This document shows, piece after piece, positions 195 to 49,138 of a DNA stretch of 58,092 bases. Under the pieces are notes generated by a model, which was given only the letters and a program-made list of their open reading frames with translations, made no database searches and was not told the DNA's origin. The stretch comes from an uncultured Ruminococcus sp. (GTDB taxonomy: Bacteria; Bacillota; Clostridia; Oscillospirales; CAG-272), in NCBI GenBank assembly GCA_902761695.1, contig CACWLT010000006.1, positions 1 to 58,092 of the forward strand, written 5' to 3'. A program made the translations under genes and the position numbers. Positions within the stretch are counted from its first letter, which is position 1. Each line of letters opens with the position of its first letter.

Positions 195-1679
195 ATGAAA
201 ATATCTGTCCGCGCGGTTTCCCTGCTTTTGACGCTGAGCCTGCTGTCCGCGGCGGGATGCTCTGCGCCCGAACCGGAGCCCGATGTGTCCTCCGCCTACA
301 CGCCTGCCGAAACGGAAGCGGCTCCCGAGGCTGAAGCGGCGCCCGAGGAGACACGACCGCCCCTGGGCCTTCCGGAGGCTGATTTCGGCGGGGCAGCCTT
401 CCGCATTTCCTGCTACGACGGCGGCAACTCCGTTCCCACGATCCAGCCCGAGGAGCTGACCGGGGAGGCGGTGAACGACGCCATCTACAACCGGAACACC
501 ATGCTGCAGGAGCAGTATGATTTCGTCTTTGACGCGGTATCCCACGACAACGACTACAACGGGCACACAAGGGAGATCGCGGCCATGGTGAGCGCCGGGG
601 ACGACTCCTTCGAGATGATTTACGGCCACGTGGTGGGGACCTGCAACAACGCCATCATCGGCAACTACATGAACCTCTATGATCTGCCCCATCTGGATTT
701 CGGCGCGGTGTGGTGGCCTGCGCAGTCCGTGGATGAGATGACGATTTTCGGGCGGATGTACACCATCACGGGGAGCGCGACCTACAGTCAGCTGGCGGCG
801 GCGAAGGTGGTGTTCTTCAACAAGGATCTGGCCGAGCAGTATGGTCTGGACGATCCCTACGAGCTGGTGCGGAACGGGGAATGGACCATCGACGCCCTTA
901 TCGACCGGACGGAGGGGATCTATCAGGACACGAACGGCGACGGGAAGCGGGATCCGGACGACCTTTACGGCTACGGCACGCATCCCATGCAGAACGGGTT
1001 CTTCGTCTCTACCAACACGCCTATTCTTTCCCGCACCGAGGACGGCGGCAAGGAGATTTCCGTCATGACGGACCGGACCGTGGCGCTGGTGGAGAAGCTC
1101 TACAGCTGGTATTACGAATCCGGCGGGGTTTATCTGAAATCCTCCGTGGCCGATCCCGGCGGATACGCGGACCGGTTCGCCACGGGGCACACGGTGTTCT
1201 CCTTCGGCCACATCATGCACGCGCCCGCCTACTACCGGAGCTCGGAGATTTCCTACGGCATCCTGCCCCAGCCGAAATACGACACGGCCCAGGAGAAGTA
1301 CATCGCCTTTGCCTGCCCCAGTCTGTTCAGCGTGCCGATCACGTGTCAGAACACGGAGATGACCGGTTTCGTCTTTGAGGCGATGACGTACTACGGCTAC
1401 TTCGACATCATTCCGGTTTACTACGAGACCACGCTGAAGGGGAAGATCGCGGACGCGCCGGACGACGTGGAGATGCTGGAGATCGTCAACGACGCGCTGA
1501 CCGTTTCCTTCGCCTACTGCTACGACAACTGGGAGGGCTTCGCTCATTTCCTCAGCGGCACGGTCATGAACTTCACGGAGACGTCGGGGAACAAGGACGT
1601 GGCCAGCGTCTTCGCCAAGCGGAACAAGATCGCGCAGAAGAGGCTGGAGAAATGCCTCAAGGCGTTCAGAGGGGACTAA
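195..1679 (+). CDS. Extracellular solute-binding lipoprotein (ABC-type sugar SBP, LplA-like), paralog 1
   Basis: ORF 150..1679 trimmed to the ATG at 195 (AAAGGAG upstream). N-terminus MKISVRAVSLLLTLSLLSAAGC is a lipoprotein signal peptide with lipobox. Motifs DPYELVRNGEWTID and DTNGDGKRD are shared with seven paralogs in this window. Confidence 0.8.
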   Translation: MKISVRAVSLLLTLSLLSAAGCSAPEPEPDVSSAYTPAETEAAPEAEAAPEETRPPLGLPEADFGGAAFRISCYDGGNSVPTIQPEELTGEAVNDAIYNRNTMLQEQYDFVFDAVSHDNDYNGHTREIAAMVSAGDDSFEMIYGHVVGTCNNAIIGNYMNLYDLPHLDFGAVWWPAQSVDEMTIFGRMYTITGSATYSQLAAAKVVFFNKDLAEQYGLDDPYELVRNGEWTIDALIDRTEGIYQDTNGDGKRDPDDLYGYGTHPMQNGFFVSTNTPILSRTEDGGKEISVMTDRTVALVEKLYSWYYESGGVYLKSSVADPGGYADRFATGHTVFSFGHIMHAPAYYRSSEISYGILPQPKYDTAQEKYIAFACPSLFSVPITCQNTEMTGFVFEAMTYYGYFDIIPVYYETTLKGKIADAPDDVEMLEIVNDALTVSFAYCYDNWEGFAHFLSGTVMNFTETSGNKDVASVFAKRNKIAQKRLEKCLKAFRGD

Positions 1680-1685
1680 GGAAGA

Positions 1686-1888
1686 TAATGCTAAATCCTT
1701 TCTAAGGGGATACGCGGCTTCTTGAAAGAAACCCAGAGCAGCAAGCTGCTCGGCAAGAACTTTATACTATCAACTGGTGCAGCGTTCTTCTTTACGTGCA
1801 GCACGGGGTAACGTACAGCGCATTATTTTCAGGTTATGCTTTTCGCGCATCATGGTCGGATTGCCCTTTTAGGCTGAGAAGAGCATAA
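1686..1888 (+). mobile_element. MITE-like TIR repeat, copy A (203 bp)
   Basis: Left end TAATGCTAAATCCTTTCTAAGGGGATACGCGGCTTCTTGAAAG. Right end CCCTTTTAGGCTGAGAAGAGCATAA is its imperfect reverse complement. Invariant core GTGCAGCACGGGGTAACGTACAGCGCA at 1796-1822. Starts 7 nt after the SBP stop codon. Confidence 0.75.
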
Positions 1889-2199: not shown

Positions 2200-3081
2200 A
2201 TGACCATACTTGACGGAATCAAATCTTCGCGGCTGATCCCGGGGGACGGTACCCATGCGTTCCGGGATCCGGCGGTGATCTGCCGGGACGGGGTTTTCCG
2301 GCTGTACTGCACCTATGTGGAGACGGAGGCGGACGGCGGGATCTATATGTACACCGTTCTCATGCGCTCGACCGACCTCGTGCATTGGAGCGCGCCCCGG
2401 AAGCTGACGCCGCGGGACCGGGCCCTCAATTTCTCCAGTCCCGGAAACATCGTGGAATGGCGGGGGGAATACGTGATGTGCCTCCAGACCTACTGCCGGG
2501 AGAACGGGGAGAAATACGGGAACGAGCGGAGCCGGATCTGGACCATGCGCAGCCGGGATCTGGAAAACTGGGACGAGCCCCGGCCCCTGATGGTGAAGGG
2601 GGACGTGCCGTTATCCGGGATGGGGCGGATGATCGATCCCTATCTGATTTACGACGGGGCGTCGGGGCTCTGGAACTGCTTCTACAAGCAGAACGGGGTG
2701 AGCAGGTCTACCTCGCCGGATCTGGAGCGCTGGGAATACCGGGGAGCCTTTCCGGGCGGGGAGAACGTCAGCGTCATCCGGCGGGGCGGGGAATACCTCA
2801 TGTTCCACTCCCCGGAGAACGGGATCGGGGTGAAGCGGTCCTTCGATCTTGAGCATTGGGAGGACGCCGGGGCGCTTCTGACCTTCGGGCAGCGGGACTG
2901 GCTCTGGGCGAGAGGGCGTCTGACGGCGGGATTTGTTCTGCCCTATGAGGAGGACGGGGAGACGGTTTATCTCATGTTCTTCCACGGCACGGGGCCCGAG
3001 GACGAGCGCGTGGATTTCGACAGGAACGCCTCCATCGGGCTGGCCTGGAGCCGGGATCTGGTGCGGTGGGAGTGGAGATAA
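2200..3081 (+). CDS. Beta-propeller glycoside hydrolase-like protein (GH43/GH130-clan-like), cytoplasmic
   Basis: 293-aa ORF with no signal peptide. Repeated blade-like segments (FRDPAVICRDGVFRLYCT, MIDPYLIYDG.SGLWNCFYK, GEYLMFHSP, VYLMFFHG). The family call is approximate. Confidence 0.5.
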   Translation: MTILDGIKSSRLIPGDGTHAFRDPAVICRDGVFRLYCTYVETEADGGIYMYTVLMRSTDLVHWSAPRKLTPRDRALNFSSPGNIVEWRGEYVMCLQTYCRENGEKYGNERSRIWTMRSRDLENWDEPRPLMVKGDVPLSGMGRMIDPYLIYDGASGLWNCFYKQNGVSRSTSPDLERWEYRGAFPGGENVSVIRRGGEYLMFHSPENGIGVKRSFDLEHWEDAGALLTFGQRDWLWARGRLTAGFVLPYEEDGETVYLMFFHGTGPEDERVDFDRNASIGLAWSRDLVRWEWR

Positions 3082-3272
3082 TACTAATCTCATTCAAAAA
3101 GGGAAAACGCGGCTTCTTGAAAGGGAAGCCCCGCTCAACAAGTTGAGGGGCAAGAACTTAAATAATCCACTGGTGCAGCTTTCTTTTCTTCGTGCAGCAC
3201 GGGGTAACGTACAGCGCACTTATTTAGCTTTGCTTTTTCCATGTATTTGCTGGATTGTTGAGAATAGTATAA
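3079..3272 (+). mobile_element. MITE-like TIR repeat, copy B (194 bp)
   Basis: Begins TAATACTAATCTCATTCAAAAAGGGAAAACGCGGCTTCTTGAAAG, where the TAA is the stop codon of the upstream gene. Same 27-nt core. Right end TTGAGAATAGTATAA. Confidence 0.75.
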
Positions 3273-3298
3273 GCCGTTTCGGGAACAGGAGACACATC

Positions 3299-5548
3299 AT
3301 GTCAAGACATATTTACACGTTGAACCGGCCGGCGGGGTGGCCGCATGAGGAATGGCGGGAGGCGCTGCCTCTGGGGAACGGGCTGACGGGGGTTCTCATG
3401 CCGGGGTCCATCGCGGCGGAGCACATCACCTTCAACCGGCACGATCTCTGGCACGGGGGAAACGAGGGCGGGGAGATCCCGGACATCTCGGAGACCTTCC
3501 GGGCCATGCGGGAGGCCGTCCGGAGAGGGGATTACACCGCCGCGAATCAGGACAATCTCATGGCCGCGCTGAATGAGGCGGGATATCACGCGGGGCCGGA
3601 GGTTCCTTATCCGCTGGGGTGGCTGAACCTGACCTTCACGCCGGAGGGGATGTTCCGTCACTACCGGCGTGGGGTGAACATGCGGACCGGGGAGGCCTTC
3701 GTGACGTTTGAAATCGGGGGCTGCCGGTATGAGCGCCGGATGTTCGTCTCCCGGGCCTGCGACGCGGCCGTGCTCCGGATGACGGGGGAGCGGGAATTTA
3801 CGGCGCTCTTTGATTTAGCGCTCTTCTCCGAGGAGGGGGAAGCGGAGATCACGGACCGGTCCATCCGGAAAGCCTCCCGGGACGGGGACACGGCGGTGAA
3901 CGTGCTGTTCCGGGGAGACTTCCGGAGCGAGGTGCGTGGGGACAAGATAGCGGTGACGGGGCGGGACTGGACGGTGCTGATCCGCTGTTCGTCCCACGGG
4001 TCGCGCCTCTCCCTTGACGATATTGCCGGGGAGAGCTGGGAATCCCTTCTGGAAAAGCACACGGCGCTTTACACGCCCCTTTACGACGCTGTCGACATCG
4101 AGCTGGCGGGGGAGGAGGACTTCGAAGCTTCCAATGAGGAGATGCTGGACGCGGCCTACGACGACGAGGCGTCTCCCGCGCTGATCGAGCGGCTGTGGCG
4201 GTTCGGGCGGTATCTCTTTATTTCGGCGGCGTCGGGGAAGGGCAATCCCGTTCCCCTCTACGGGCTCTGGCACGGGGCGGACGGGCTTCCCTGGGCGCAG
4301 TACGTGGCCAACGAGAACGTGGAGATGACCTACTGGCACGTCATGGCGGGGGGAATGGCCTGGGCGGTGCCTCCGCTGCTCCGGTACTACGCGGCGCATC
4401 TCGACAAATTCCGGGAGTGCGCGCGGCGGATTTTCGGGATGCGGGGGATCTGGATCTCGGCCTACACCACCCCGAACACGGCGGGGCCCTGCGTTCCGGT
4501 GGCGGTGATCGGCAACTGGATCAGCTGCGCGGGATGGCTCTGCCGCCACTTCTGGGAATACTATCTCTACACCGGGGACGAGGCGCTGCTGCGGGAGGAG
4601 ATTCTGCCCTTCATGCGGGAGGCGGCCCTCTTCTGGCTGGACTATGCGGAGGAGGATGAAAACGGTTTTCTGGAGCTTTTGCCCTCGGTTTCTCCGGAGA
4701 ACACGCCGGGCAATCTTCTGCACCTGCCCACGAAATCCGCCACGGGGCATCCCTGTCCGGCGGTGAAGAACGCGACTATGGATTTTGCCGTCATGAAGGA
4801 GCTCTTCACCAATCTGCTGGAGGGGATGAGGGTCACGGGGCTTTACGCGGACGAGGCGGAGGAATTCCGGTCGGCGCTCGGGAAGATCCCGGCCTATCAG
4901 ATCAACGAAGACGGCGCGGTGAAGGAATGGATGGATCCGGGGCTGACGGACAACTACGCCCACCGGCATCTCTCCCACATCTATCCGGTCTTTCCGGGGA
5001 ACGAGGTGACGGCGAAGAGCGATCCCGCGCTGTTCGAGGCCTTCCGGCGGGCGGTGCATCTCAGGGAGCTGGGCAGTCAGTGCAACTGGTCCCTCACGCA
5101 CATGGCGGCCATTTACGACCGGCTGGGCGAGGGGGAGGCGGCGGCGGAATGCCTGGATCTGCTGGCAAAGAGCGTGCTTTTGCCCTCCCTCTTCACGGTG
5201 TGCAACGACTGGAGGCACATGGGGATGACGCTGGACTGGGTGAACGTGCCGGTGCAGCTGGACGCGGTGTTCGGAACGGTGAACGCGGTGCAGGAGATGC
5301 TGTTCCGCTGGGAGAGGACGGCTTTGTCCCTGCTTCCCTCGCTGCCCGGGCGGCTGAAATCAGGCTATGTCCGGGGCATGGCGTTCCCGGGAGGGACTGT
5401 CGACATCCGATGGGGAGAGGACGGTCGGGGTGCTGTCTTGATTCGGGCGGTACGGGGAGTGGACACGGACGTTCTGGTCAGAGGCAGGTTGGTCGGGCAC
5501 ATCCGGCTGGCGGCGGGCGAGAGCGGGACCGTGGAGTGGAATGGGTGA
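3299..5548 (+). CDS. Glycoside hydrolase family 95 (alpha-L-fucosidase/galactosidase type)
   Basis: ORF 2933..5548 trimmed to the ATG at 3299 (AGGAGA upstream). N-terminal WREALPLGNGLTGVLMPG and the ~750-aa layout are typical of GH95. No signal peptide. Confidence 0.75.
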   Translation: MSRHIYTLNRPAGWPHEEWREALPLGNGLTGVLMPGSIAAEHITFNRHDLWHGGNEGGEIPDISETFRAMREAVRRGDYTAANQDNLMAALNEAGYHAGPEVPYPLGWLNLTFTPEGMFRHYRRGVNMRTGEAFVTFEIGGCRYERRMFVSRACDAAVLRMTGEREFTALFDLALFSEEGEAEITDRSIRKASRDGDTAVNVLFRGDFRSEVRGDKIAVTGRDWTVLIRCSSHGSRLSLDDIAGESWESLLEKHTALYTPLYDAVDIELAGEEDFEASNEEMLDAAYDDEASPALIERLWRFGRYLFISAASGKGNPVPLYGLWHGADGLPWAQYVANENVEMTYWHVMAGGMAWAVPPLLRYYAAHLDKFRECARRIFGMRGIWISAYTTPNTAGPCVPVAVIGNWISCAGWLCRHFWEYYLYTGDEALLREEILPFMREAALFWLDYAEEDENGFLELLPSVSPENTPGNLLHLPTKSATGHPCPAVKNATMDFAVMKELFTNLLEGMRVTGLYADEAEEFRSALGKIPAYQINEDGAVKEWMDPGLTDNYAHRHLSHIYPVFPGNEVTAKSDPALFEAFRRAVHLRELGSQCNWSLTHMAAIYDRLGEGEAAAECLDLLAKSVLLPSLFTVCNDWRHMGMTLDWVNVPVQLDAVFGTVNAVQEMLFRWERTALSLLPSLPGRLKSGYVRGMAFPGGTVDIRWGEDGRGAVLIRAVRGVDTDVLVRGRLVGHIRLAAGESGTVEWNG

Positions 5549-5630: not shown

Positions 5631-7070
5631 TCAGTTCCAGGCTTTGTCCACGGGATAAAGACCTTCGGACCGGTACTGCCGGTTGGCTTCGCCGAGGAGG
5701 GTGAGCTTCATGGCGTCGGTGCCGCTGTCGGTGAAGTCCTGGAACTGCCAGGTGAGGGCGAGCTGGATGCCGGAGGAGCGGATATCGTCGATGAGGGCGC
5801 GGAAATGCTCCTCCAGGTCAGGGGCGTTGTTCATATCCAGAAAGTCCCCCATTTCTCCGAAGATGCAGCCCTTTCCGGCGGCGTCGGCGGCCTCCTTATA
5901 GGCGGTGAAGTACTCCCGCTGGGTGACGGTCTTGCCCCAGGGATCCATGGTTTCGACGTATTTTCCGGAGCCGTCCCCGGTGCCCTGCTGGAGGTGGAAG
6001 CAGGCGCAGTCGATGGGATCCGGCGTCATGAGGGCGTTCATTTCGTCGAACTGGGCGCGGGTGTTCTTCGTCCAGTCCACGGCCCAGGAATGGGTCTTTT
6101 TGTTCATATGCTGCGAGGCGCGGGAGGAGGCCTTGGCGAAGGGGCGCATTTCCCCGTTGCCGGTCTCGATCATGCGCCAGCCGTCGTATTCCCGGATTTT
6201 TCCGGAGATCTGCCGGTAAAAGGAGATCATTTCCTCCGAGGAGAAATAGTCGAAGCCGGTGGGCTCGTCATCGGGATAGCCGCTCAGCCAGCTCCAGTTC
6301 ACGGTATCGCAGAGGTCGGCGTCCAGGTTGTACTCGTTTCCGATCTCCCAGGCCCAGACGGCGGGAGAGGCGGCATAGCGGCTGACAATGGCGGCGGTAT
6401 AATCGAGGGCATACCGCACCGTGGCGCTCTCCGGGTCTCCCATGGCGGACCGGTGCTCGCCCACATGGAGGGGCAGGGCAGTGTCATGCCAGAACAGGGA
6501 GACGATGATGCCGATCTTCGCTTCCTCCGCCGCTTCCACCACCCGGTCCAGATACCGGAGCACTTCGTCGGGATCCCGGTCGAAGGCTTCATAATAGTCC
6601 GTCCAGTAGCCGCCGAAGGGCATCCGGACGAAGTCCACGCCGTAGTCCTTCAGCTTCCGGAAGGCTTCGGCGAAGGGCTGATCGTCAAAGTCCGCGTACC
6701 AGTAATGGGCGAAGGCGCCGAAATAGTTCACGCCGAAGCCGCAGAAACGCTCTCCGGCCAGGCGGATCTCCCCGCCGTCCTCCACGTGAAGGCCGAGGCG
6801 GGCGGTGTTCCGCTCTCCGGGGGAGGGGATGTCATACGGGAACCGGGGGGAAGTCTGCATGGGGGTGTCCTCCGTTTCTGTCGGGTTTGCCGTTTCCGGC
6901 GGCGGGGCCGGATCGACCGGAGCTTCCGTCTGGACGGGATCCGCCGGCATCGGTTCGGCGGTCTCCGTGGGGATGCTGTCCTGCGCGGCGGGCGGGGGAT
7001 CCGTTTTTTTGCCGCAGCCGGTCAGAAGCAGCAGGGCGGCGGTGAGGAGAAGGATTTTTCTGATTGTCAC
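5631..7070 (-). CDS. Secreted lipoprotein, glycoside hydrolase family 5 (mannanase/glucanase-like)
   Basis: MTIRKILLLTAALLLLTGCG lipobox; Pro/Thr/Glu-rich linker; WAWEIGNEYN matches the GH5 acid/base NE motif. Confidence 0.7.
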   Translation of the reverse strand: MTIRKILLLTAALLLLTGCGKKTDPPPAAQDSIPTETAEPMPADPVQTEAPVDPAPPPETANPTETEDTPMQTSPRFPYDIPSPGERNTARLGLHVEDGGEIRLAGERFCGFGVNYFGAFAHYWYADFDDQPFAEAFRKLKDYGVDFVRMPFGGYWTDYYEAFDRDPDEVLRYLDRVVEAAEEAKIGIIVSLFWHDTALPLHVGEHRSAMGDPESATVRYALDYTAAIVSRYAASPAVWAWEIGNEYNLDADLCDTVNWSWLSGYPDDEPTGFDYFSSEEMISFYRQISGKIREYDGWRMIETGNGEMRPFAKASSRASQHMNKKTHSWAVDWTKNTRAQFDEMNALMTPDPIDCACFHLQQGTGDGSGKYVETMDPWGKTVTQREYFTAYKEAADAAGKGCIFGEMGDFLDMNNAPDLEEHFRALIDDIRSSGIQLALTWQFQDFTDSGTDAMKLTLLGEANRQYRSEGLYPVDKAWN

Positions 7071-7098
7071 GGGTTTTCGCGCCTCCGTTCGGGTATCG

Positions 7099-8157
7099 TC
7101 AGGGGCTCACCTGCATCCGGTGACGGAATCCCCGTCGGGCGTCGGCTTGGGCGCGGTCCGGTGGGAAGCCCAGCAGCGGGATGCCGCGGTCCACAGTGTT
7201 CCGATAGATGACTTCCATATTGTTCAGGTGGGGCTGGGACATGTTTACGCCGGTCAGCATGGGCTGGGCGCAGAGGTGGGCGATATAGTGGTCGCCGCGC
7301 CCGCAGAAGTGCATGATGCCGCCGCCGTACCGCTCCAGCAGGATCCGGTCGTAAGGGACGGCGAATTCTTCATACAGCTCCGGGGAGAGGTTCATGGCGC
7401 TGTCGCAGCGGAGGGCGATCCGTCCCTTATGGCGGATATGGGACCAATGGGCGTTCATCTCCGCGCCGCAGGGGAAGAGGGCGAACCACTTGTCCATGAA
7501 GCGGATATAGGTCTCGGTGATGAGGTTCATGGCGGCGTGCACCAGCTCCGGCTCGTCGTACATGGCGTAGAACATGTCCTGTCCCCACAGAAGCTCGCAG
7601 ATATCCAGCGGTCCCTGCAGGTCGGGATGGTAGACGTACACGTACCGGCCGAGCTTCGGGTAAGCCTCCACGATCTCCCGCAGGATCTCCCCGCAGCGGA
7701 AGACACGGGCTCCGAAGCCGGCGTTCAGGTCGGGCGCGCCCTTTTCCAGCAGCTCCCGCATTTTATCCGTGCTGTTGAACGAGCGGGCGGTGGGGAGGGT
7801 ATTGGTGTGGCGGGGCATCTCAAAGATCTCCGCGCCGAAGACGGTGGCCAGGATCGCCGAGCCGTAATTGGCCCGCACCGCCAGATTGCTCCCGCCGTTT
7901 GCCAGGCAGTGGGACACGCCCGTCATCTCCGAGGTGATCATGGTTTCGTAATCGGCCAGGGCGTCGTTGATGTTGATGCCGGGGAGGGGCGTTCCGGGCG
8001 GGGTATGGCGGCCTCTCACGGGGCGGAAGATATCCTCCTCCCAGGTCCCGCTTAAGAAGCGGAGCCAGCTTTCGTCAAGGGCGTCCTCCGTCTCCGGGTC
8101 GATGCGCCGCTCGATATCCTCCAGCAGCGCGGCGGTTTCCTTACGCAGCTTCATCAT
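7099..8157 (-). CDS. Uroporphyrinogen decarboxylase (URO-D)-superfamily protein of unknown function
   Basis: ORF 7099..8199 trimmed to the ATGATG at 8157, which overlaps the upstream stop (ATGA). C-terminal half DSAMNLSPELYEEFAVPYDRILLERYGGGIMHFCGRGD resembles the URO-D/MtaA-CmuA fold segment (DSW.G.LSP..F.EF..PY...H.CG). Confidence 0.5.
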   Translation of the reverse strand: MMKLRKETAALLEDIERRIDPETEDALDESWLRFLSGTWEEDIFRPVRGRHTPPGTPLPGININDALADYETMITSEMTGVSHCLANGGSNLAVRANYGSAILATVFGAEIFEMPRHTNTLPTARSFNSTDKMRELLEKGAPDLNAGFGARVFRCGEILREIVEAYPKLGRYVYVYHPDLQGPLDICELLWGQDMFYAMYDEPELVHAAMNLITETYIRFMDKWFALFPCGAEMNAHWSHIRHKGRIALRCDSAMNLSPELYEEFAVPYDRILLERYGGGIMHFCGRGDHYIAHLCAQPMLTGVNMSQPHLNNMEVIYRNTVDRGIPLLGFPPDRAQADARRGFRHRMQVSP

Positions 8158-8756: not shown

Positions 8757-8909
8757 GATGCGGGGACCTCCGGTGATGATGTCGGGGGAGGATGGCTCCG
8801 CGCCCCCATACAGTATAGCAGAAGGGGAGAAAAAAGTAAAGCGGAAATTGCGGGACGGCGGGAAGCAGAACATGATGAAAATGTTCTTTTTTCAAAATCG
8901 CGGATCCTC

Positions 8910-14567: not shown

Positions 14568-14676
14568 AGACGCAGAAAGGAAAAGGCGCGCCGGGGCGGT
14601 GATTGCTCCGCCGGCAGAATAATAGCTTGCGGAACGGTATAACAGCACGGCGCGGAAGCGGGAGGATTTGACTTTC

Positions 14677-37598: not shown

Positions 37599-37657
37599 TT
37601 TGGCGTCCCCGCGCGGCGAGTCGGCCGAAAGAATAAAAAACGGAAAGGATCATACCC

Positions 37658-39313: not shown

Positions 39314-39345
39314 CTGCAAGGGAAGGACAGAAAGGAGGCGGGCAT

Positions 39346-40380: not shown

Positions 40381-40455
40381 CGGGACGCAGCGGTGGAGAG
40401 AGGAAAAGCAGAACCATTGAACCCATATACGGGTATAAAAACGGAGGATGGAATC

Positions 40456-42018
40456 ATGGGAAGAATGATCGTCAAGGGCAAGGAATTTGCCGCCGCGCGG
40501 GTCCTTTGCGGGGACAGCGCTCCTGAGAACTACGCGGCATCCGAGCTGCGGAAATACCTCGCCATGCTGGGGATTCCGGAGGGGGACGGCGCGGCTGTCT
40601 CGATCCGGGAGGACGCCTCCGTCGGACGGGACGGGTACGCGGTATCCGCCGGGGAGGACGGGGAGATCACCATCGCGGGGGGGAACGGACGGGGCGCCAT
40701 CTACGGGGTCTACGCTCTGCTGGAGCGCTGCGCCGGGGTGCGGTTCTACATGCCCGGGGTGGAGAAGACCGGCGGGGACACCGTGGAGGTGAAGGAGGAC
40801 TTCGCGCACACCCCCGTCTTTGAGATGCGGCAGTCCGACTGGAGGTGCGGCAACGGCAGCGCGGACTGGTGCGTGAAGAACGGCATCAACCAGCGGGAAC
40901 TGCCGAAGGAGATGGGCGGGCACATCAAGTACGGCGGGTTCGTCCACACCATGACCGGTCTTGTGGGGACGCCGTGGGATGAGCAGCCCTGCTTCAGCGA
41001 TCCCGAGGTGCTGAAAAAGGCCATTGCCGGAGTCCGGGCCATTCTGGAGAAGGATCCGGACGTGAAGATCGTCTCCGTGTCCCAGAACGACAACCAGAAC
41101 TACTGCAAATGCGAGAAGTGCCGGGCCGTGGACGAGGAGGAGGGCAGCCACATGGGGACCCTGCTCCGCTTCGTGAACGCCGTGGCAGCGGACATCGCGG
41201 AGGACTACCCCGACGTGGTGATCGACACACTGGCTTATCAGCACACGCGGAAGGCGCCGAAAATCACGAAGCCTCTGCCCAACGTCTGCATCCGGCTCTG
41301 CTCCATCGAATGCTGCTTCAGCCATCCGCTGGACGATCCCACCTGCCCGGTGAACGCCGCGTTTTATCGCGACATCGTGGAGTGGAACAGGATCTGCGAC
41401 CGGATCTACATCTGGGACTACGTGACCTGCTTCCCCCACTACATCCCCACCTTCCCGAACTTCGGCGTGCTGCGGAAGAACATGCGCTTCTTCGCGACCC
41501 ACGGCGTGAAGGGCATGTATCCCGAGGGCAACTATCAGTCGGAGCAGTCCGGGGAGTTCGGCGAGCTGCGGTGCTGGCTGCTGGCGAAGCTGATGATGGA
41601 TCCCATGATGAGCGAGGGGGAATACCTCGGTCACATGGACGACTTCCTCGAGGGCTACTACGGCGCGGGGTGGCGGTATATCCGGGCTTACATCGACTGG
41701 ACCGTGTCGGAGGCGGCGGGGGCGCACATGAACATCTGGAATCCGCCCTTCGTCACCATTCCGCGGGAGAAGTACGCCGCCATGGAGGAGACCTTTGATC
41801 TCTGGTGGGACAGGGCGGAGGAGGCGGCCGGCGACCGGATCGAAGCGGTGAAGCGCTCGCGGCTCCAGTGGCGGTACATCAAGCTGATGCTCCATCCGGA
41901 CGCAGAGGTCGGGAAGGCCTTCTTCGAGGAAGTGAAGGAGCAGCGGATCCGGTGGAGAGAGGTCCAGGAGCTTCCGGAGCATCCGGACTTCGCCGCGTCC
42001 CCGGAAACCTGGCGGTGA
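40456..42018 (+). CDS. DUF4838-like protein, cytoplasmic paralog (no signal peptide)
   Basis: ATG at 40456 (ACGGAGGA upstream). Shares SQNDNQNYCKCEKCRAVD, TLAYQHT and CSIECCFSHP with the lipoprotein paralog at 22017. Nucleotide identity appears roughly 85% across the core, by eye. Confidence 0.6.
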   Translation: MGRMIVKGKEFAAARVLCGDSAPENYAASELRKYLAMLGIPEGDGAAVSIREDASVGRDGYAVSAGEDGEITIAGGNGRGAIYGVYALLERCAGVRFYMPGVEKTGGDTVEVKEDFAHTPVFEMRQSDWRCGNGSADWCVKNGINQRELPKEMGGHIKYGGFVHTMTGLVGTPWDEQPCFSDPEVLKKAIAGVRAILEKDPDVKIVSVSQNDNQNYCKCEKCRAVDEEEGSHMGTLLRFVNAVAADIAEDYPDVVIDTLAYQHTRKAPKITKPLPNVCIRLCSIECCFSHPLDDPTCPVNAAFYRDIVEWNRICDRIYIWDYVTCFPHYIPTFPNFGVLRKNMRFFATHGVKGMYPEGNYQSEQSGEFGELRCWLLAKLMMDPMMSEGEYLGHMDDFLEGYYGAGWRYIRAYIDWTVSEAAGAHMNIWNPPFVTIPREKYAAMEETFDLWWDRAEEAAGDRIEAVKRSRLQWRYIKLMLHPDAEVGKAFFEEVKEQRIRWREVQELPEHPDFAASPETWR

Positions 42019-42151: not shown

Positions 42152-43648
42152 ATGACCGAACTTCAGAAGCGCGCCCTTTCCCTGATTCTCGTCCTCGCCC
42201 TTGCCGCGCCGGGGCTGACCGCCTGCAGCGAAACGCAGCCCGAAGCGCAGCAGCAGAACGCCGTCTCCCCGGCCGCGGAGGAAGCGGTGACCGGGACGCC
42301 CGAGACCGAGCTCACCCGGGAGAACACGCCGGATACCCTGCCGGACGATCTGGATTTCGGCGGGGAGACCTTCACCATCTACTACTCGAACGGCTTCAAC
42401 TGGTCGGGGCAGATCGAGGGCGGGGAGGAGCTGACCGGGGACGTGGTGCCCGACACGGTGATCCAGTGCAACCAGTCCGTGGCCGAACGCCTCAACATCG
42501 ATCTTGAGTACTATCCCGAGAATTCCGGCGACTGGAGCACCATCAACACGCTGGTCAGCAATCTGATCATGGCAAACGACGCCACCTACGACGTGTTCAT
42601 GGGCGAGCAGTACGGCCTGACCCAGACGGCGGTCAAGGGCTACTACCGCAACGCGCTGGAGCTGCCGTACTTCGATTTCGATCAGCCCTGGTGGAACGTC
42701 ACCTTCATGGAGAACCTCCAGCTGACGGACGACTACCGCATGTTCCTGACGGGGGATTTTAATCTGACCACCCTCTGCCAGCTCTTCGTGCAGTACTACA
42801 ACAAGGCGGTCTACTCGAATCTCTTCGGCAATCCGGACGATCTCTACCAGACGGTTTTGGAGGGGAACTGGACCATCGACAAAATGAGCGAGCTGATTGC
42901 CTCCTCCTACATCGATCTGGACGGGAACGGAAAGCTCACCCCCGAGGATCAGCTGGGATACGTGGCCTACAAGACCTTCTCCACCGTGGACCCGTTCATG
43001 TACTGCGCCGACATCCCCTACACCTCCCGGGACGACGAGGGCAGAATCGTCATCGACATGAACCAGGAGCGGGCCGTGACCCTGACGGAAAAGGTGGTGC
43101 ACCTCTTCAATCAGGAGGGGGCCTACACCGAGGGGACTGATTCCTTCATGACCGGGGGAGCCCTGTTCTGCGCCGGGCTTCTGCGGACGGCCGAGAACTT
43201 CCGCGACATGGAGGATGACTTCGGCTTCCTGCCCTCCCCGAAGCTGGACGAGAGCCAGGAGCACTACCGGAATCTGGTGGGGGACTGCAATCTGTTCACG
43301 GTGGTTCCCGTCACCTCGACAAGAGCGGAAATGGCGGGGGCCGTCCTCGAGGCCCTGAACGCCCAGACCTACCGGACCGTTTTGCCGGCCTGGTACGAGG
43401 TCACGCTGAAATGCAAGTACTCCCGGGACCTGATCTCCTCCGACATCATCGATCTGATCCACGATTCCATTTACACGGACTTCCTCTTCGCCTACTCCCC
43501 CATGGTGAGCCAGATGGGGCAGGTCATGCGGGATCTGGTGACGAACAACAACACCAATTATATGTCGAACGTGGCCTCCAAGGAAAAGGCGGCGGCCAAG
43601 TCCCTGGAGCGGATGTACAAGGAGCTGGACAAGAACCGGAATCCGTAA
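42152..43648 (+). CDS. Extracellular solute-binding lipoprotein, paralog 6
   Basis: MTELQKRALSLILVLALAAPGLTACS lipobox; DDLYQTVLEGNWTIDKM and DLDGNGKLTPED motifs. Confidence 0.8.
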   Translation: MTELQKRALSLILVLALAAPGLTACSETQPEAQQQNAVSPAAEEAVTGTPETELTRENTPDTLPDDLDFGGETFTIYYSNGFNWSGQIEGGEELTGDVVPDTVIQCNQSVAERLNIDLEYYPENSGDWSTINTLVSNLIMANDATYDVFMGEQYGLTQTAVKGYYRNALELPYFDFDQPWWNVTFMENLQLTDDYRMFLTGDFNLTTLCQLFVQYYNKAVYSNLFGNPDDLYQTVLEGNWTIDKMSELIASSYIDLDGNGKLTPEDQLGYVAYKTFSTVDPFMYCADIPYTSRDDEGRIVIDMNQERAVTLTEKVVHLFNQEGAYTEGTDSFMTGGALFCAGLLRTAENFRDMEDDFGFLPSPKLDESQEHYRNLVGDCNLFTVVPVTSTRAEMAGAVLEALNAQTYRTVLPAWYEVTLKCKYSRDLISSDIIDLIHDSIYTDFLFAYSPMVSQMGQVMRDLVTNNNTNYMSNVASKEKAAAKSLERMYKELDKNRNP

Positions 43649-43706: not shown

Positions 43707-43767
43707 GGCAGGGAAACGGACGGTGTGAGTGACATACAGCCTCGCCGTAAGCGGGAAAGGAAACGGA

Positions 43768-46038
43768 ATGCAGAACAGAATTGAAATCGAAAAAGACGGG
43801 CGGCCCCTGTTTGCGGCGGCATACGGTCCGGCAGCGGTGCGCCTGACCTACGGGCGGGATCCCGACACGCTGGGCGAATCCTGCATCGTCAAGGCCTCCC
43901 CGGCGGATTTTCCGGACGCGGCGGCGACGGCGGAGGTCGGGGAAGAAAACGCGATTCTCCGGACGGGCGGCTTGGTCGTGACGGCAGAGAGGCGCAGCGG
44001 AGCGGTCCGGATCGAGGACGGGGCGGGAAAGCTGCTCTCGCGGATCCACCGGTTCTCTCTGACGGAATACGACATGCTCCGCACCGTGGGCGGCGATACG
44101 GAAACCCGGCATACCGTGGACGGCGTCCGGGTCACGGTGAAAAACGGGGAGCGGGAATTCTCCCGGAAATCCTGCCACGGCGCCGTGACCTTCGATTTCA
44201 CGGAGGAGGAGACCCTCTTCGGGCTGGGCAGCCACGAGGAAGGATACCCGAATCTCAGAGGACAGTTTGTGCCGCTCTATCAGGAGAACATGCGCATCGC
44301 GGTGCCGGTGTTTGTGTCCACCAAGGGCTACGGGGTGCTTATCGACTGCACCTCCGTCATGACCTTCGACGCCACGGACCACAGGCGGGGGAAGTTCTTC
44401 CTGGATTCCGCCGACGCGGTGGACATCTGGTTCGTGTACGGCGGGGACTATGACGGGGTGTGCCGGGAGCTTTGCAGGCTGACCGGGAGGACGCCCATGC
44501 TGCCGAAATGGGCCGCCGGGTACGTGCAGTCCAAGGAGCGGTACGGATCCCAAAAGGAGCTGATTGACATCGGCCGGAAATACCGGGAGCTGGGGATCCC
44601 CATCGACGTCATCGTGCAGGACTGGCTCTACTGGGACGACGGCATGTGGGGCAACAAGCACTTCAACAAAGAGCGCTATCCCGACCCGCAGGCGCTGACG
44701 GACGAGCTGCACAGAATGGATCTGCGGCTGATGGTGTCCATCTGGCCGAATCTCTCCGGGGAATCGGAGGACAGGGTCGAGCTGCGGGAGGCGGGGCATC
44801 TTTTGGGCGACGGCTCCATGGTGAACGCCTACGACGAGGCGGCCCGGGCCATGTACTGGAAGCAGGCTTACGAGGGGCTGTTCCGGTACGGCATCGACGG
44901 CTGGTGGTGCGACTCCTCCGAGCCCTACGACGCGGTCTGGGGCGGCGCGGAACGGGCTCCCCTTCCCGAGCGGATGGCGAAATCCGTGGGGGAATTCAAA
45001 AAATACCTGGACGACGGGGTGCTGAACGTCTACTCCCTCCATCACTCCATGGGTATGTACGAGAACCAGCGGCGGTGCTCGGACAAGCGGGTGGTGAACC
45101 TGACCCGGTCCGGGTACGCGGGACAGCACCGGTACGGAACGGTCGTCTGGTCCGGGGACTGCTCGGCCAACTGGGAGACCCTCCGGAAGCAGGTGCGGAT
45201 CATGCAGAACTACATCGCCACGGGGGAGGCGTACTGGAACTCCGACATCGGCTCCTTCTTCGCGTCCGGCGGATACGAATGGTTCCGGGACGGGGATTAT
45301 CCGGAGGGCTGCGACGATCCGGGCTACCGGGAGCTCTACACCCGCTGGCTCCAGTTCGCCGCCTTCACGCCCATGATGCGTTCCCACGGCACCAACACGC
45401 CGAGGGAGGTCTGGCGGTTCGGCGAGAGGGGGACGGCGTACCGGGACGCCATCGAGGGGGCCATCCGGCTCCGCTATGCCCTCCTTCCCTACATTTATTC
45501 GGTCCACGCGGCGGTGACCTTTGACGGGATCATGCCGGTGACGCCGCTGGCTCTGGCGTATCCCGGAGACCGGGAGGCGGCGAAGGCGTCCGGGGAATAT
45601 CTCTACGGAAAGTCCCTTCTGGTCTGCCCGGTGACGGATCCCGGGGCGGAGGAGATCACGGTATATCTTCCCGAGGGCGGATGGTACGATTATGAGACGG
45701 AGGAATTTTACGAGGGCGGCCGGTATGTGAAGCTCCCCGTGAGCATCGAGAAGATCCCGCTGTTTGTGAAGGCCGGGGCCATCCTTCCCGTCGCGCCCCC
45801 CGTGCAGTCCACGGCGGAGCTGGCGGGGAAGACCTATGAGCTCCGGATCTACGCGGGGGCGGACGGGGAATTCACCCTCTACGACGACGGCGGGCTGGAC
45901 TACGCCTACGAACAGGGCGACTGCACCGCCGTGACCTATCGATACCGGGAATCCGACGGAGCGCTCACGGAGAGCGTTTCGGGAAAGCCGGACTGGAAGC
46001 ATCCCATCACCGTGCGCAGGATCGGAAAAAACGGCTGA
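43768..46038 (+). CDS. GH31 alpha-glucosidase/alpha-xylosidase
   Basis: ORF trimmed to MQNRIEIEKDG at 43768. KWAAGYVQSKERY, DVIVQDWLYW, GIDGWWCDSSEP (nucleophile region) and MMRSHGT motifs. Confidence 0.8.
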   Translation: MQNRIEIEKDGRPLFAAAYGPAAVRLTYGRDPDTLGESCIVKASPADFPDAAATAEVGEENAILRTGGLVVTAERRSGAVRIEDGAGKLLSRIHRFSLTEYDMLRTVGGDTETRHTVDGVRVTVKNGEREFSRKSCHGAVTFDFTEEETLFGLGSHEEGYPNLRGQFVPLYQENMRIAVPVFVSTKGYGVLIDCTSVMTFDATDHRRGKFFLDSADAVDIWFVYGGDYDGVCRELCRLTGRTPMLPKWAAGYVQSKERYGSQKELIDIGRKYRELGIPIDVIVQDWLYWDDGMWGNKHFNKERYPDPQALTDELHRMDLRLMVSIWPNLSGESEDRVELREAGHLLGDGSMVNAYDEAARAMYWKQAYEGLFRYGIDGWWCDSSEPYDAVWGGAERAPLPERMAKSVGEFKKYLDDGVLNVYSLHHSMGMYENQRRCSDKRVVNLTRSGYAGQHRYGTVVWSGDCSANWETLRKQVRIMQNYIATGEAYWNSDIGSFFASGGYEWFRDGDYPEGCDDPGYRELYTRWLQFAAFTPMMRSHGTNTPREVWRFGERGTAYRDAIEGAIRLRYALLPYIYSVHAAVTFDGIMPVTPLALAYPGDREAAKASGEYLYGKSLLVCPVTDPGAEEITVYLPEGGWYDYETEEFYEGGRYVKLPVSIEKIPLFVKAGAILPVAPPVQSTAELAGKTYELRIYAGADGEFTLYDDGGLDYAYEQGDCTAVTYRYRESDGALTESVSGKPDWKHPITVRRIGKNG

Positions 46039-46072: not shown

Positions 46073-47548
46073 ATGAAAAAGCAGCTTTCACTTCTGCTGG
46101 CTCTTCTGACGCTCCTGCCGTCCCTGGCGGCGTGCGGCGAAAGCGAGGTCAACACGGAGGAGGAGACGACCTCCGTCCAGAGCAGCGAAGTGGTTTCCCC
46201 CGCGGAGACGGAGCCCCCGGAGACGGAGCTGCCGCTGCCCGAGGCCGATTACGACGGATACGAGGTCCGCGTGCTGAACAACATCTCCAACTTCGCCTAC
46301 ACCAACATCGGCGAGGAGGGGCTGACGGGCGAATCGCTGGACGACGCCGTCTTCAACCGCAACAAGACCGTTGAGGACAAGCTGAACGTCACCTTCACCA
46401 TCGAGAAGCGGGAGTACTACGACACCCGGGATACCATCACGAAGGTGGTGTCCGCCGGCGAGGACGTCTACGATTTCTACACCTGCGACCTCAACATCCT
46501 GCTGGGCCACGCCATGAACGGGTACGTCCTGAACGCGAAGAACGTGGACACCCTCCAGTTCGATCAGCCCTGGTGGAACAAGCAGGCCATCGATTCCGTC
46601 TCCATCGGGGACGCGGTCTACGGCTTCTTCGGGGACCTGCACACCGGGTACTTCGAGAGCCACAACGTGGCGGCCTTCAACAAGCGGATCCTGACCGACC
46701 TGAACCTGTCCGATCCCTACGAGCTGGTCCGCAACAACGAGTGGACGCTGGATAAGATGATCGTCATGATGGACGCGGCGAAGATGGATCTGGACGGCGA
46801 CGGCAAATGGACGGTGGAGGATCAGTACGGTCTCTCCATGTTCCAGGGCAACTGGTCCCTGGCCTTCATCACCGGCGGAAACGCCTTCATCGTGCAGAAG
46901 GACGAGAACAACCTGCCCGTCTGGAATGGTATCAGCGAGCGGTTCCTGACGATCTTCGAGGCGGCGGCGACGGGCATTTTCGACGAGAACACCAACAACG
47001 CCATCAACGCCCGGGGCACCCTTCCCGGAGATCTGGAGCTTTACCGGCTGATGTTCATCTACGACCGGGTGCTGTTCCTGGTGACGCAGATCGGCGTTCT
47101 GAAGAACATGCGGGACGTGAATTTCGAGCTGGGCGTCGTTCCGTCCCCGAAATTCGACCAGACCCAGGAGAACTACGTATCCCTCATCTTCCAGGGGGCC
47201 AACGCGGTGGGCATTCCGCTGACCAATCCCGACGCGGAGCGCACCGGCGTGGTGCTGGACTATCTGGCGGCCATGTCCACCGACACCGTCCGCGACGTCT
47301 ACATCAACCAGACCCTGGACTTCAAGTACATTCAGGACCAGGAGAGCCAGGAAATGCTGGACATCATCCTGTCCACGGGCACCTTTGAGATCGCGGCGGT
47401 TTACGACTGGGGCGGCATCGCGGGGCAGGTCATGACGCTGCTCAACGCGGGCAAGACCACGCTGGCGTCCACGGCGGCCAAGCTGGAGAAGCGGGTCGTG
47501 AAGGCGATGGAGGAAACGGTCGACACCTTCTCCAAGGTGGGGCAGTGA
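46073..47548 (+). CDS. Extracellular solute-binding lipoprotein, paralog 7
   Basis: MKKQLSLLLALLTLLPSLAACGESE lipobox; SDPYELVRNNEWTLDKM and DLDGDGKWTVED motifs. Confidence 0.8.
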   Translation: MKKQLSLLLALLTLLPSLAACGESEVNTEEETTSVQSSEVVSPAETEPPETELPLPEADYDGYEVRVLNNISNFAYTNIGEEGLTGESLDDAVFNRNKTVEDKLNVTFTIEKREYYDTRDTITKVVSAGEDVYDFYTCDLNILLGHAMNGYVLNAKNVDTLQFDQPWWNKQAIDSVSIGDAVYGFFGDLHTGYFESHNVAAFNKRILTDLNLSDPYELVRNNEWTLDKMIVMMDAAKMDLDGDGKWTVEDQYGLSMFQGNWSLAFITGGNAFIVQKDENNLPVWNGISERFLTIFEAAATGIFDENTNNAINARGTLPGDLELYRLMFIYDRVLFLVTQIGVLKNMRDVNFELGVVPSPKFDQTQENYVSLIFQGANAVGIPLTNPDAERTGVVLDYLAAMSTDTVRDVYINQTLDFKYIQDQESQEMLDIILSTGTFEIAAVYDWGGIAGQVMTLLNAGKTTLASTAAKLEKRVVKAMEETVDTFSKVGQ

Positions 47549-47609
47549 TACGCAGCCGACCGTTTGCCGGAGCCGATTTCACAGACAGAATCAAGAAAGG
47601 AACAGAGCA

Positions 47610-49138
47610 ATGAAAAAAACAGTTTCACTTCTGCTGGCGTTTTTTCTGCTTCTGACATCACTGGCGGCCTGCGGGGAGAGCGAAGAGAACGCGGGGACCG
47701 ATAACGCGGGATCCGTACAGTCCGGCGGCGACGGCAATCCTTCCGCGGAAACGGAGGCGGAGACCGAATCCCCCACGCCGAACTGGGACGTTGTCTCAAA
47801 GACGGATCTTGGCGGGATGGACATTATTGCCACCACCAACGACTTCGATTCCAACTTCTACAACGTTCTGGACTGGGACGAGATCACCGGGGACAATCTG
47901 AAGGACGCCATGTACAACCGCAACCGGGCCGTGGAGAGCGCGCTGAACTGCGTCTTCTCCGTGGTCTACGGCGGCGGGACCGGCATACTGGAAAAATCCG
48001 TCTCGGCGGGAAGCGGGGACGTGGATTTCGCCTACAACCTGGTCAGCGCGGGCGGCGGACTGATCCAGAAGGGGTATCTCTCGCCCTTCGACATGCTGGA
48101 CAACATCGACATGACGAAGGCGTACTGGGATCAGGGCGCGCAAAAATACCTCCGGATCCTCGGGAAGATGTATTTCGGCTTCGTCGAATCCTGGGGAAGA
48201 TGTATTTCGGCTTCGTGGATTTCGGCTTCGACCACTACGACTCCCTGGCGGTGCTGTTCTACAACGGCAAGCTGGTGACCGACTATCAGCTGGAGGATCC
48301 TCAGGAGATGGTGCTGGAGGACACCTGGACCATCGACAAGATGTCCGATCAGATCGCCGCGGTGCTGACCGACGTCAACGGGGACGGGAAGTACACGCTG
48401 ACGGAGGACGTATTCGGTCTGACGGGCCGGGAATACTGGTTCCAGCCCTTCCTGAACCGCTCCGGCGAATACCTCATCACCTGGGACGACAAGGCGGAGA
48501 ATTTCGTGCTCCACATGACCGACGACCGGTTCGTGCGGGTGTCCGAGGTGATCACCTCCATCTACAGCAGCCAGAATCCGGCGACGGACTACTCCGACTA
48601 TGACAAGGGGCGCGTCGCGTTCTCCGAGGGACGGTCCCTGTTCTACTTCCGCCTGCCGGGCGACTTCCGGCAGCTGCGCGAGGTGGAGGACGACTACGGC
48701 GTGGTGTGCTTCCCGCGGTATGCCGAGGACGGCGGCAATTCCTCCTATTTCGTGAAGAATCCCACGACCCTGTATCTGCCCACGGTGGTCTGCGATGCCA
48801 ACGGGGACGGGCGGCAGGACTACGACGAGATCGGCGCGTTCCTCGAGGCCATGGGCGCGTACACGTACGACAACACGCTGGACGTCTATCTGGAGAACAC
48901 CGTCATCGGCAAGGGCATGCGGGACGAGCGGTCCGCAGACATGGTGCGGCTGATGATGAAAAACCGCTCCTTCGACCTGGGCGAGGCCTTCAGTCTCCAC
49001 GACGTGATGGACATTTACCGCCTTGCCGTCATCAAGGGAGAGGGTCTGGCCTCCAGCGAGCAGAAGGCGGAGAAGTTCTTCAACCGGCTGACGTCCAAGA
49101 TCGTCGACAAGATCCGGGAATTCGATATCGGAAACTGA
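47610..49138 (+). pseudogene. Solute-binding lipoprotein, paralog 8, frameshifted by a 32-bp tandem duplication
   Basis: ORF 47610..48278 (MKKTVSLLLAFFLLLTSLAACGESE…LGKMYFGFVESWGRC…*) and ORF 48200..49138 (MYFGFVDFGFDHYDSLAVLFYNGKL…). Removing one repeat copy restores a single frame reading …ILGKMYFGFVDFGFDHYD…. Confidence 0.75.
48156..48219 (+). repeat. 32-bp direct tandem duplication (2 mismatches) inside the SBP gene
   Basis: 48156-48187 ATCCTCGGGAAGATGTATTTCGGCTTCGTCGA; 48188-48219 ATCCTGGGGAAGATGTATTTCGGCTTCGTGGA. Confidence 0.9.

Follow-up and report, generated by a model that had tools for sequence, protein, structure and literature searches.

A stretch of 58,092 nucleotides from an uncultured Ruminococcus sp. 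(assembly GCA_902761695.1, contig CACWLT010000006.1, positions 1 to 58,092), hereafter called the window, carries eight paralogous lipoprotein genes interleaved with about 20 glycan-degrading genes, whose products mostly lack a signal peptide. In this study, we predict that these lipoproteins have the fold of the substrate-binding proteins (SBPs) of CUT1 sugar importers of the ATP-binding cassette (ABC) type, and we show that they belong to a family of thousands of sequence clusters, among 263 genes of which not one stands beside an intact pair of permease genes. The reading that we favour, with confidence and doubt in about equal measure, is that they are substrate-specific receptors, co-regulated with cytoplasmic enzymes, which would feed a few permease pairs encoded elsewhere and powered by an ATPase of the MsmK type.

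Sequence libraries fail to recognise these proteins. None of the eight window copies matches a Pfam model at E<=0.01, including SBP_bac_1 (PF01547), SBP_bac_8 (PF13416) and TctC. NCBIfam returns nothing beyond signal peptides, a profile search of all PDB sequences gave no match, and profile comparison by hhalign with E. coli MalE or UgpB stayed below a probability of 10%. About 17 of 120 homologs carry weak precomputed matches to SBP_bac_1 or SBP_bac_8. The AlphaFold2 model of the protein encoded at 29749-31245, made with a 107-sequence alignment (mean pLDDT 90.6, pTM 0.86), has the two-lobe alpha/beta fold with hinge of type II periplasmic-binding proteins (PBPs). Searched against the PDB with Foldseek, it returned 946 matches at E<=0.001, of which the top 50 were all CUT1-type SBPs or maltose-binding protein (MBP) fusions, with a probability of 1.0. 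Its neighbours comprise Thermotoga maritima MalE1-3, UgpB, RafE, a cyclodextrin-binding protein, Clostridium thermocellum CbpB and MBP fusions, at E about 1e-11, 11-14% identity and target-normalised TM-scores of 0.5-0.66. On this model, the window copies are lipoproteins with an SBP fold of the MalE/CUT1 type, and their clade is one that sequence libraries miss. It is structure prediction that bears out the SBP identity proposed in an earlier note on this DNA, Pfam and NCBIfam being silent on the window copies.

A family hidden Markov model (HMM) built from 107 homologs (487 positions) finds eight paralogs in the window, six of them intact, one a pseudogene and one frameshifted, in agreement with the eight lipoprotein genes, one decayed and one frameshifted, that the earlier note had listed. 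The six intact copies score 431-528 bits over their full length. Each of them begins with a lipobox signal peptide, as the note had claimed for the group, and the lipobox cysteine is invariant in the 107 homologs. The third copy, the pseudogene, has lost HMM positions 184-220 and is truncated C-terminally, ending at position 392 of 487. The eighth copy is disrupted by a 32-nucleotide tandem duplication (48153-48184 and 48185-48216); because the two repeats are 94% identical, this lesion is real and not a homopolymer error. The window paralogs are 23-33% identical to one another and each has orthologs elsewhere with 60-90% identity, therefore they are ancient, specialised paralogs and not the product of recent amplification. 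Mean identity in the 107-homolog alignment is 30%, and approximately 30 positions are invariant or nearly so, a conservation compatible with a common docking partner. In the 29749-31245 protein the invariant residues include W164/W165, Y224, V227, G230, W232, T233, D235, R351, P361, P363, K364, Q369 and Y372. A conserved D-x-[DN]-G-[DN]-G...D loop resembles a Ca2+ site of the EF-hand type, and the (F/Y)NK and GxWT(I/L)D motifs seem to match the equivalent strand motifs in canonical SBPs.

The family is large and widespread. An exhaustive HMM search of 1.84 billion representatives yielded 7,683 clusters (50% identity) at E<=1e-30, a number that rises to 13,246 when the threshold is relaxed to E<=1e-10. 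Nearly all of the top 150 matches are 480-510 amino acids (aa) long and align end-to-end. For nucleotide databases we used a degenerate DNA pattern for the motif WT.[DE]-x11-D.[DN]G[DN], built for less than one chance match in 596 Gb and checked on the window, where it matches five copies versus zero expected by chance. A scan of the GTDB species representatives with this pattern gave at least 118 loci, and 116 of those listed hold true family genes. Among the matches listed there are at least 78 distinct metagenome-assembled genomes (MAGs), in which the same organisation recurs, and no isolate. These MAGs are labelled Clostridia, Oscillospiraceae, Eubacteriales, 'Ruminococcus sp.' and Ca. Flemingiibacterium; they stem from rumen, hindgut, human gut, termite gut and digesters, and a single one contains up to at least six family copies. 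The window alone contains eight in 58 kb. Most homologs are named 'hypothetical protein'. One family-bearing contig from termite gut (L119, WRIO01000099.1) is binned in a 'Candidatus Cloacimonadota' MAG; this label is most likely a binning error, since all other matches are Clostridia.

Regarding transport genes, the window (GC content approximately 62%) was resolved by third-position GC, which separates real genes from shadow open reading frames (ORFs), into about 40 genes, nearly all on the + strand. Pfam detects neither BPD_transp_1 nor an importer ATPase among them. A hydropathy scan of the window found four stop-free frames with at least three transmembrane (TM)-like segments, all antisense to real genes, and no real multi-TM frame. 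The statement of the earlier note that 58 kb hold no cognate permease or importer ATPase thus stands. The note had allowed that permease genes might lie just outside; over the 2.1 kb upstream of the window that a near-identical contig covers, there is only a DUF3604 gene. It had also allowed that orphan SBPs might already be the norm. Orphan status does prove to be family-wide (0/263), but none of its members is a characterised protein, so that the puzzle grows larger instead of being resolved.

Beyond the window, permeases were searched for by hydropathy, by phmmer with E. coli MalF/G/K and UgpA/E/C, and by Pfam or NCBIfam on every candidate. As positive controls, MalF, MalG, UgpA and UgpE were all flagged in the hydropathy scan with 5-9 segments, and the detectors also picked up potABCD and PstC in the loci themselves. 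Set 1, from the genome scan and context look-ups, comprises 121 non-redundant loci (896 kb, 153 family genes), and set 2, from a metagenome scan with ±10 kb flanks, 80 loci (746 kb, 110 family genes). Together these are about 200 loci, 1.64 Mb and 263 family genes, many of the loci being short 8-kb tiles. Flanks of at least 2 kb are available downstream of 159 family genes, upstream of 165 and on both sides of 94. The Pfam tables of loci situated inside contigs of 50 kb to 1.5 Mb contain no BPD_transp_1. Homologs that do match Pfam SBP models are likewise without permease, for example in a complete fructan locus with GH32 glycoside hydrolases (GHs), a fructokinase, GH172 and an AraC regulator. 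The 138 immediate same-strand downstream neighbours span 97 Pfam families, the commonest being xylose-isomerase-like TIM barrels, URO-D-like proteins, GFO/IDH/MocA oxidoreductases, GDSL esterases, AraC regulators, metallophosphoesterases, sulfatases and family paralogs. In other genomes, the neighbours include sugar kinases, oxidoreductases and regulators of the AraC or LacI type whose ligand-binding domains are cytoplasmic. Xylose-isomerase-like TIM barrels account for 6/138 of the downstream neighbours and URO-D-like genes for 4/138; the latter recur in glycan loci (window 7099-8199 on the - strand, L093 2248-3348 and 4937-5953, L219 5409-6416).

Several candidate partners were tried and rejected. 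At locus L145 a family SBP, an ATPase and two transmembrane domain (TMD) genes lie on one strand, in the manner of a cognate operon; NCBIfam, however, identifies the transport genes as potABCD, which includes a PotD of its own. Beside GH36 and AraC genes in L003 and L130 there is a gene of about 306-310 aa without Pfam match, which was considered as a recurring membrane partner; its L130 product is soluble, and the EamA-like candidate protein of L003 recurs only in L088. ORFs of 250-345 aa with at least four TM-like segments in the genome-scan loci proved to be ZIP, ABC-2 exporter, PstC, ZnuB, EamA, SSS, PlsY, PnuC or MgtC proteins or antisense frames. Larger multi-TM ORFs were O-antigen ligase, Na/H antiporter, MatE, FeoB, P-type ATPase, CitMHS, MurJ, MFS_1, xanthine permease, CbiQ, GGDEF and TgpA proteins. 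Three multi-TM ORFs without Pfam match show no recurrence near family genes. The 4-TM ORFs of set 2 were spurious, as was a weak MalG match in L087.

A standalone ATPase gives a hint at the partner. In one species a complete MalK/MsmK-type ATPase (ABC_tran+OB_MalK+TOBE_2), scoring 477 bits against a cut-off of 432 for the NCBIfam UgpC subfamily, is encoded 1.3-2.7 kb from family SBPs. Its gene stands by itself, flanked by surface-protein genes on one side and a CCA/poly(A) polymerase gene on the other, in each of three assemblies, one of them a 1.54-Mb contig (JBMNMF010000002.1, GCA_050953205.1), and no TMDs are encoded within ±10 kb of the orthologs. Since an MsmK-type ATPase is useless without CUT1-type TMDs, such TMDs should exist elsewhere in this genome. 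At these loci (L216-L218, 840-9528, + strand) the MsmK gene directly follows two tandem giant SLH-domain surface proteins of 1,234 and 1,564 aa with identical N-termini, and precedes a secreted, C-terminally anchored 343-aa protein without Pfam match.

Other family-bearing contigs carry pieces of a CUT1 operon. L093 (6688-7983, - strand) retains the C-terminal third of a TMD2, from the EAA loop to the C-terminus, and L135 (9693-10525, + strand) a TMD2 with an internal deletion and without EAA loop. The source operon is seen in L219 (6593-10330, + strand), where a 574-aa lipoprotein outside the family is followed by a 141-aa ORF, an intact UgpA-like TMD1 and a frameshifted MalG-like TMD2 (143+109 aa). 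The pieces remain 77-81% identical although the organisms have GC contents of 31% (L219), 49% (L093) and 45% (L135), which suggests horizontal spread of this operon followed by loss. We considered the L093 and L135 relics as decayed cognate permeases and rejected this, because the source operon in L219 is headed by a non-family lipoprotein; the relics therefore show the decay of another CUT1 operon and not of a lost cognate partner. A different association is found in a yak-rumen Clostridia MAG (L026, 3-8000, + strand, JAGCYR010000011.1), in which a stop-free ORF codes for a giant surface protein over 2,666 aa long. Residues 99-303 of this protein comprise Cadherin-like and three Flg_new repeats, and residues 532-991 a family module (HMM 81-482, 102 bits). 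The family fold can, to judge from this architecture, serve as a binding domain on its own at least once.

In the explanation that we favour, the products of the eight genes would be oligosaccharide receptors, lipid-anchored and specific for their substrates, from a deeply divergent clade of the MalE/CUT1 type; every receptor gene would share its location and its regulation with the cytoplasmic enzymes acting on the same glycan. The polymer would be cut by lipoprotein enzymes at the surface, in the window the GH5, DUF4838 and Ntn-hydrolase proteins. The SBPs would capture the oligosaccharides and pass them to a small number of remote ABC permease pairs, which a standalone multitask MsmK-type ATPase would energise, and cytoplasmic exo-glycosidases (GH95, GH29, GH2, GH20, GH31, GH3, GH43) with kinases and oxidoreductases would finish the degradation. 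The SBP fold, the lipid anchor, the cytoplasmic enzymes with their AraC and LacI sensors, the standalone MsmK and precedents in other systems favour this model. As most neighbouring enzymes are without signal peptide, their substrates must be imported, and the divergence of the window paralogs together with their close orthologs elsewhere fits specialised receptors. Docking on shared permeases and the ratio of many receptors to few translocators are what we infer from this combination. A number of findings weigh against it. An intact CUT1 permease pair of the MalF/G type lies beside 0/263 family genes, and no candidate for a shared permease was found among the about 200 loci. The Pfam families with at least two matches among the 138 downstream neighbours do not include BPD_transp_1. 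The CUT1 TMD genes present in family-bearing contigs are remnants only, and the sole complete ABC operon adjoining a family SBP is the potABCD of L145. If each genome kept a 'founder' SBP beside the shared permease, several cases would be expected among 263 genes, and none was seen. Of the two options that the earlier note had offered, permeases shared and encoded elsewhere is thus the one favoured by the standalone MsmK, the cytoplasmic enzymes and the cytoplasmic regulators, with no such permease found in 1.64 Mb.

The other option, surface glycan binding, is kept alive by L026. It would make these proteins transporter-independent lipoproteins in which the SBP fold has been co-opted as a Gram-positive functional analogue of SusD and other surface glycan-binding proteins (SGBPs), a capture module that keeps glycans at hand for the enzymes on the cell surface, with uptake left to an unrelated system. 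The lack of an adjacent permease in about 200 loci, the nearly complete family module inside the giant surface protein, the decay of CUT1 TMD genes in family-bearing contigs and the three window enzymes heuristically assigned to the surface as lipoproteins all agree with it. However, the linked enzymes are mostly cytoplasmic exo-glycosidases, kinases and oxidoreductases that need imported oligosaccharides, and sugar transporters of the MFS/GPH type or of the phosphotransferase system (PTS) show no enrichment in the vicinity, where the multi-TM proteins are MatE, MurJ, EamA, FeoB, CbiQ, P-type ATPases and a few generic MFS_1 proteins. Moreover, the L026 module stands apart from the family by its divergence (102 bits versus more than 400). 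We consider this option unlikely. Alternatively, the remote partner could be something other than a CUT1 MalF/G pair, either a TMD family not recognised as such or a secondary transporter resembling the tripartite ATP-independent periplasmic (TRAP) or tripartite tricarboxylate transporters (TTT). A family so divergent that neither Pfam nor a profile comparison with MalE and UgpB captures it might have an equally divergent partner, and no classical TMD pair is intact in 1.64 Mb; yet no multi-TM protein of unknown type recurs near family genes, EamA-type proteins occur in only about 4/200 loci, and ordinary CUT1 TMDs are suggested by the conserved ATPase of the MsmK type that a family-bearing genome encodes. 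The chances of such a partner appear slim to us. Both alternatives meet in a broader proposition, namely that a CUT1-derived SBP-fold family has been freed from ABC permeases, as a SusD-like glycan-capture layer or with a partner of unrecognised kind, and constitutes a new functional class, which we regard as improbable.

That the proteins are extracellular sugar sensors, signalling to membrane kinases or chemoreceptors without delivering anything for uptake, is very doubtful. SBPs are known as co-receptors of sensors (PMC11113362) and regulator genes often adjoin family genes, but these regulators are soluble AraC (cupin plus helix-turn-helix) or LacI proteins instead of membrane kinases or response regulators, and no histidine kinase recurs among the 138 downstream neighbours. 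We give hardly any credence to an assembly or binning artefact by which fragmentary MAG contigs would merely lack the permeases. All data do come from MAGs and metagenome contigs, many loci being 8-kb tiles; against this stand the available flanks (159 family genes with at least 2 kb downstream and 94 with as much on both sides), several family genes inside contigs of 150 kb to 1.5 Mb, detectors that found potABCD, PstC and the E. coli controls, and the same organisation in at least 78 independent MAGs.

The genes surrounding the eight copies are listed in Table 1 together with the copies. Signal peptides were called by a simple heuristic, which assigns lipoprotein signals to the GH5 protein (5631-7070), one DUF4838 protein (22011-24143) and the Ntn-hydrolase (24199-25425); the assertion of the earlier note that the enzymes are signal-peptide-less holds for most of them and fails for these three. 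The same note was right in calling the ABC gene at 57203 an exporter-type fusion: Pfam places ABC_tran at residues 92-241 after a TM segment, and the protein, which is no part of an importer, matches MalK only weakly (E=3e-17). The gene order of oxidoreductases, regulator and kinase that follows the fifth copy (31271-35101) recurs in L004. Further gene types in the window are GH29-like genes, GDSL esterases and several proteins without Pfam match. The GH5, GH31, GH95, GH2, GH3 and GH43 genes, together with those of GH20 and GH29, point to xyloglucan oligosaccharides, fucosylated or galactosylated oligosaccharides and hexosamine-containing oligosaccharides as possible ligands of the neighbouring copies.

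Table 1. Lipoprotein copies and surrounding genes in the window
Feature	Position	Strand	Basis
Copy 1, SBP-fold lipoprotein (predicted), 494 aa, intact	195-1679	+	HMM 490 bits, full length; lipobox LSAAGC; no Pfam or NCBIfam match
GH43-like (2200-3081) and GH95 (about 3299-5548)	2200-5548	+	Pfam; no signal peptides; GH95 start inferred from L125 gene calls
GH5 lipoprotein (5631-7070), URO-D-like (7099-8199), GDSL esterase (8154-8873)	5631-8873	-	Pfam; GH5 lipobox
Copy 2, SBP-fold lipoprotein (predicted), 490 aa, intact	11161-12633	+	HMM 431 bits; lipobox
638-aa unknown protein, metallophosphoesterase, GH51-like in two overlapping frames	12651-17595	+	Pfam; no signal peptides
Copy 3, pseudogene	17596-18943	+	HMM pieces 2-48, 65-110, 120-183 and 221-392 in two frames
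GH2 beta-galactosidase (cytoplasmic), DUF4838/GH20b-like lipoprotein (22011-24143), Ntn-hydrolase lipoprotein (24199-25425)	19070-25425	+	Pfam; signal-peptide heuristic
Copy 4, SBP-fold lipoprotein (predicted), 496 aa, intact	25674-27164	+	HMM 454 bits; lipobox
GH20 and 343-aa unknown gene, downstream of copy 4	27200-29699	+	Pfam; GH20 start from L004 gene calls
Copy 5, SBP-fold lipoprotein (predicted), 498 aa, intact, modelled copy	29749-31245	+	HMM 528 bits; AlphaFold2; Foldseek
Two GFO/IDH/MocA oxidoreductases, Peripla_BP_3 (LacI-type) regulator, PfkB sugar kinase, downstream of copy 5	31271-35101	+	Pfam
Metallophosphoesterase, GH43+F5/8-C, GH43-like, DUF4838	36171-42018	+	Pfam; no signal peptides
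Copy 6, SBP-fold lipoprotein (predicted), 498 aa, intact	42152-43648	+	HMM 483 bits; lipobox
GH31, downstream of copy 6	43729-46038	+	Pfam
Copy 7, SBP-fold lipoprotein (predicted), 491 aa, intact	46073-47548	+	HMM 484 bits; lipobox
Copy 8, frameshifted	47610-49138	+	HMM 1-185 in one frame, 177-485 in another
GH3, downstream of copy 8	49182-51338	+	Pfam
Exporter-type fused ABC protein, C-terminal TMD and ABC_tran part, runs off window	57203-58072	-	Pfam

Damage in the window probably extends beyond the third and eighth copies. Directly upstream of the decayed third copy, the GH51-like arabinofuranosidase region is split into two ORFs that overlap and differ in frame (15746-16588 and 16216-17595, + strand). 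It is probably another frameshifted gene, and several window genes therefore look inactivated. A GH29-like ORF (9662-10990, + strand) matches only the C-terminal half of the Alpha_L_fucos model, and a short GH29 of 322 aa (54543-55511, - strand) overlaps a 501-aa ORF in another frame (region 53386-55511); both may be truncated or frameshifted. Three conserved-looking cytoplasmic proteins of 638, 343 and 415 aa without Pfam match (12651-14567, 28668-29699 and 51988-53235, all + strand) adjoin family SBPs or GHs and are candidate new glycan-active enzymes. A database look-up with the gene at 51988-53235 found no record of the encoding contig.

The SBP fold and the idea of orphan SBPs are already known. 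In full-text literature searches we found no description of a MalE-type family of such size that is invisible to Pfam, of one restricted, among the MAGs listed, to uncultured Clostridia, of a systematic uncoupling from permease genes that goes beyond the ATPase, or of arrays of receptor-enzyme modules. Gram-positive polysaccharide loci are usually recognised by an SBP with two permease genes, and SBPs by Pfam; because the family fails both tests, its loci are invisible to standard annotation. If many receptors feed few translocators, this would amount to a many-to-one architecture on a large scale, the first of its kind in carbohydrate ABC import. It would extend the 'shared ATPase' idea of MsmK to permeases, and genome-based prediction of substrate range would have to count receptors instead of transporters. 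If the proteins act independently of transporters, they would represent a new type of Gram-positive surface glycan-binding protein, and a family freed from ABC permeases would mean that abundant gut lineages possess a glycan uptake route unseen by schemes which define Gram-positive polysaccharide utilization loci by SBP plus permeases. With defined genes, a structural model and named genomes, among them the near-complete family-bearing GCA_050953205.1 and GCA_022791685.1, this sugar import route is now testable.

With CUT1 SBPs such as MalE, UgpB, RafE, CbpB and T. maritima MalE1-3 the family shares the predicted two-lobe PBP type II fold, and with those of Gram-positive bacteria also the lipoprotein anchor and the location in glycan-utilisation loci. 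It differs from them by its low identity (11-14%), approximately 100 additional residues and the EF-hand-like D-x-[DN]-G-[DN]-G loop; CUT1 SBPs adjoin two permease genes, whereas the family never does (0/263). The Bug/TctC orphan SBPs of Bordetella and Rhodoplanes are likewise hugely expanded, mostly without adjacent membrane component and often located near substrate-specific metabolic genes. There are 76 of them in B. pertussis and 434 in Rhodoplanes, and their TTT partners are presumed to be shared and distant (PMC11452294). However, these are soluble periplasmic proteins of Proteobacteria with a TctC subfamily fold (PF03401), a TTT secondary transporter and carboxylates or amino acids, not glycans, as ligands, whereas our family is MalE-like by predicted structure without a TctC Pfam match, and there is no TctA-like 12-TM protein among the multi-TM neighbours in its loci. 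MsmX, MsmK and MsiK likewise illustrate sugar importer components that are uncoupled in the genome and shared between systems. These multitask ATPases are common to several CUT1 importers, each SBP still lying beside its own TMD pair (PMC7658222). There the ATPase is the shared part; in the family loci the TMD pair itself is absent from every SBP locus.

Several binding proteins feed one translocator in the Ali/AmiA-AmiCDEF and Borrelia OppA1-5 systems. Together with MppA-OppBCDF and Bifidobacterium LT-SBP, they resemble our favoured model in having several SBPs per translocator, some of them encoded away from it. SBPs that borrow a transporter, some being encoded remotely, have been described (PMC3173086, PMC8110962), and single orphan CUT1 SBPs in Bifidobacterium were proposed to borrow membrane components (PMC8110962). 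These cases involve a handful of SBPs per transporter, mostly in peptide systems, with a known founder 'home' operon, whereas the family counts thousands of clusters and no home operon was seen. The SusD and SGBP proteins of polysaccharide utilization loci in Bacteroidota differ from the family in structure and setting: SusD has an all-alpha, TPR-like fold and is always paired with the TonB-dependent transporter SusC in diderms, the family has a predicted PBP type II fold and no SusC. The Clostridia and Oscillospiraceae, to which the family hosts are assigned, are monoderms. What both groups have in common is that they are lipoproteins, one per glycan-specific enzyme cluster, with multiple divergent paralogs per genome.

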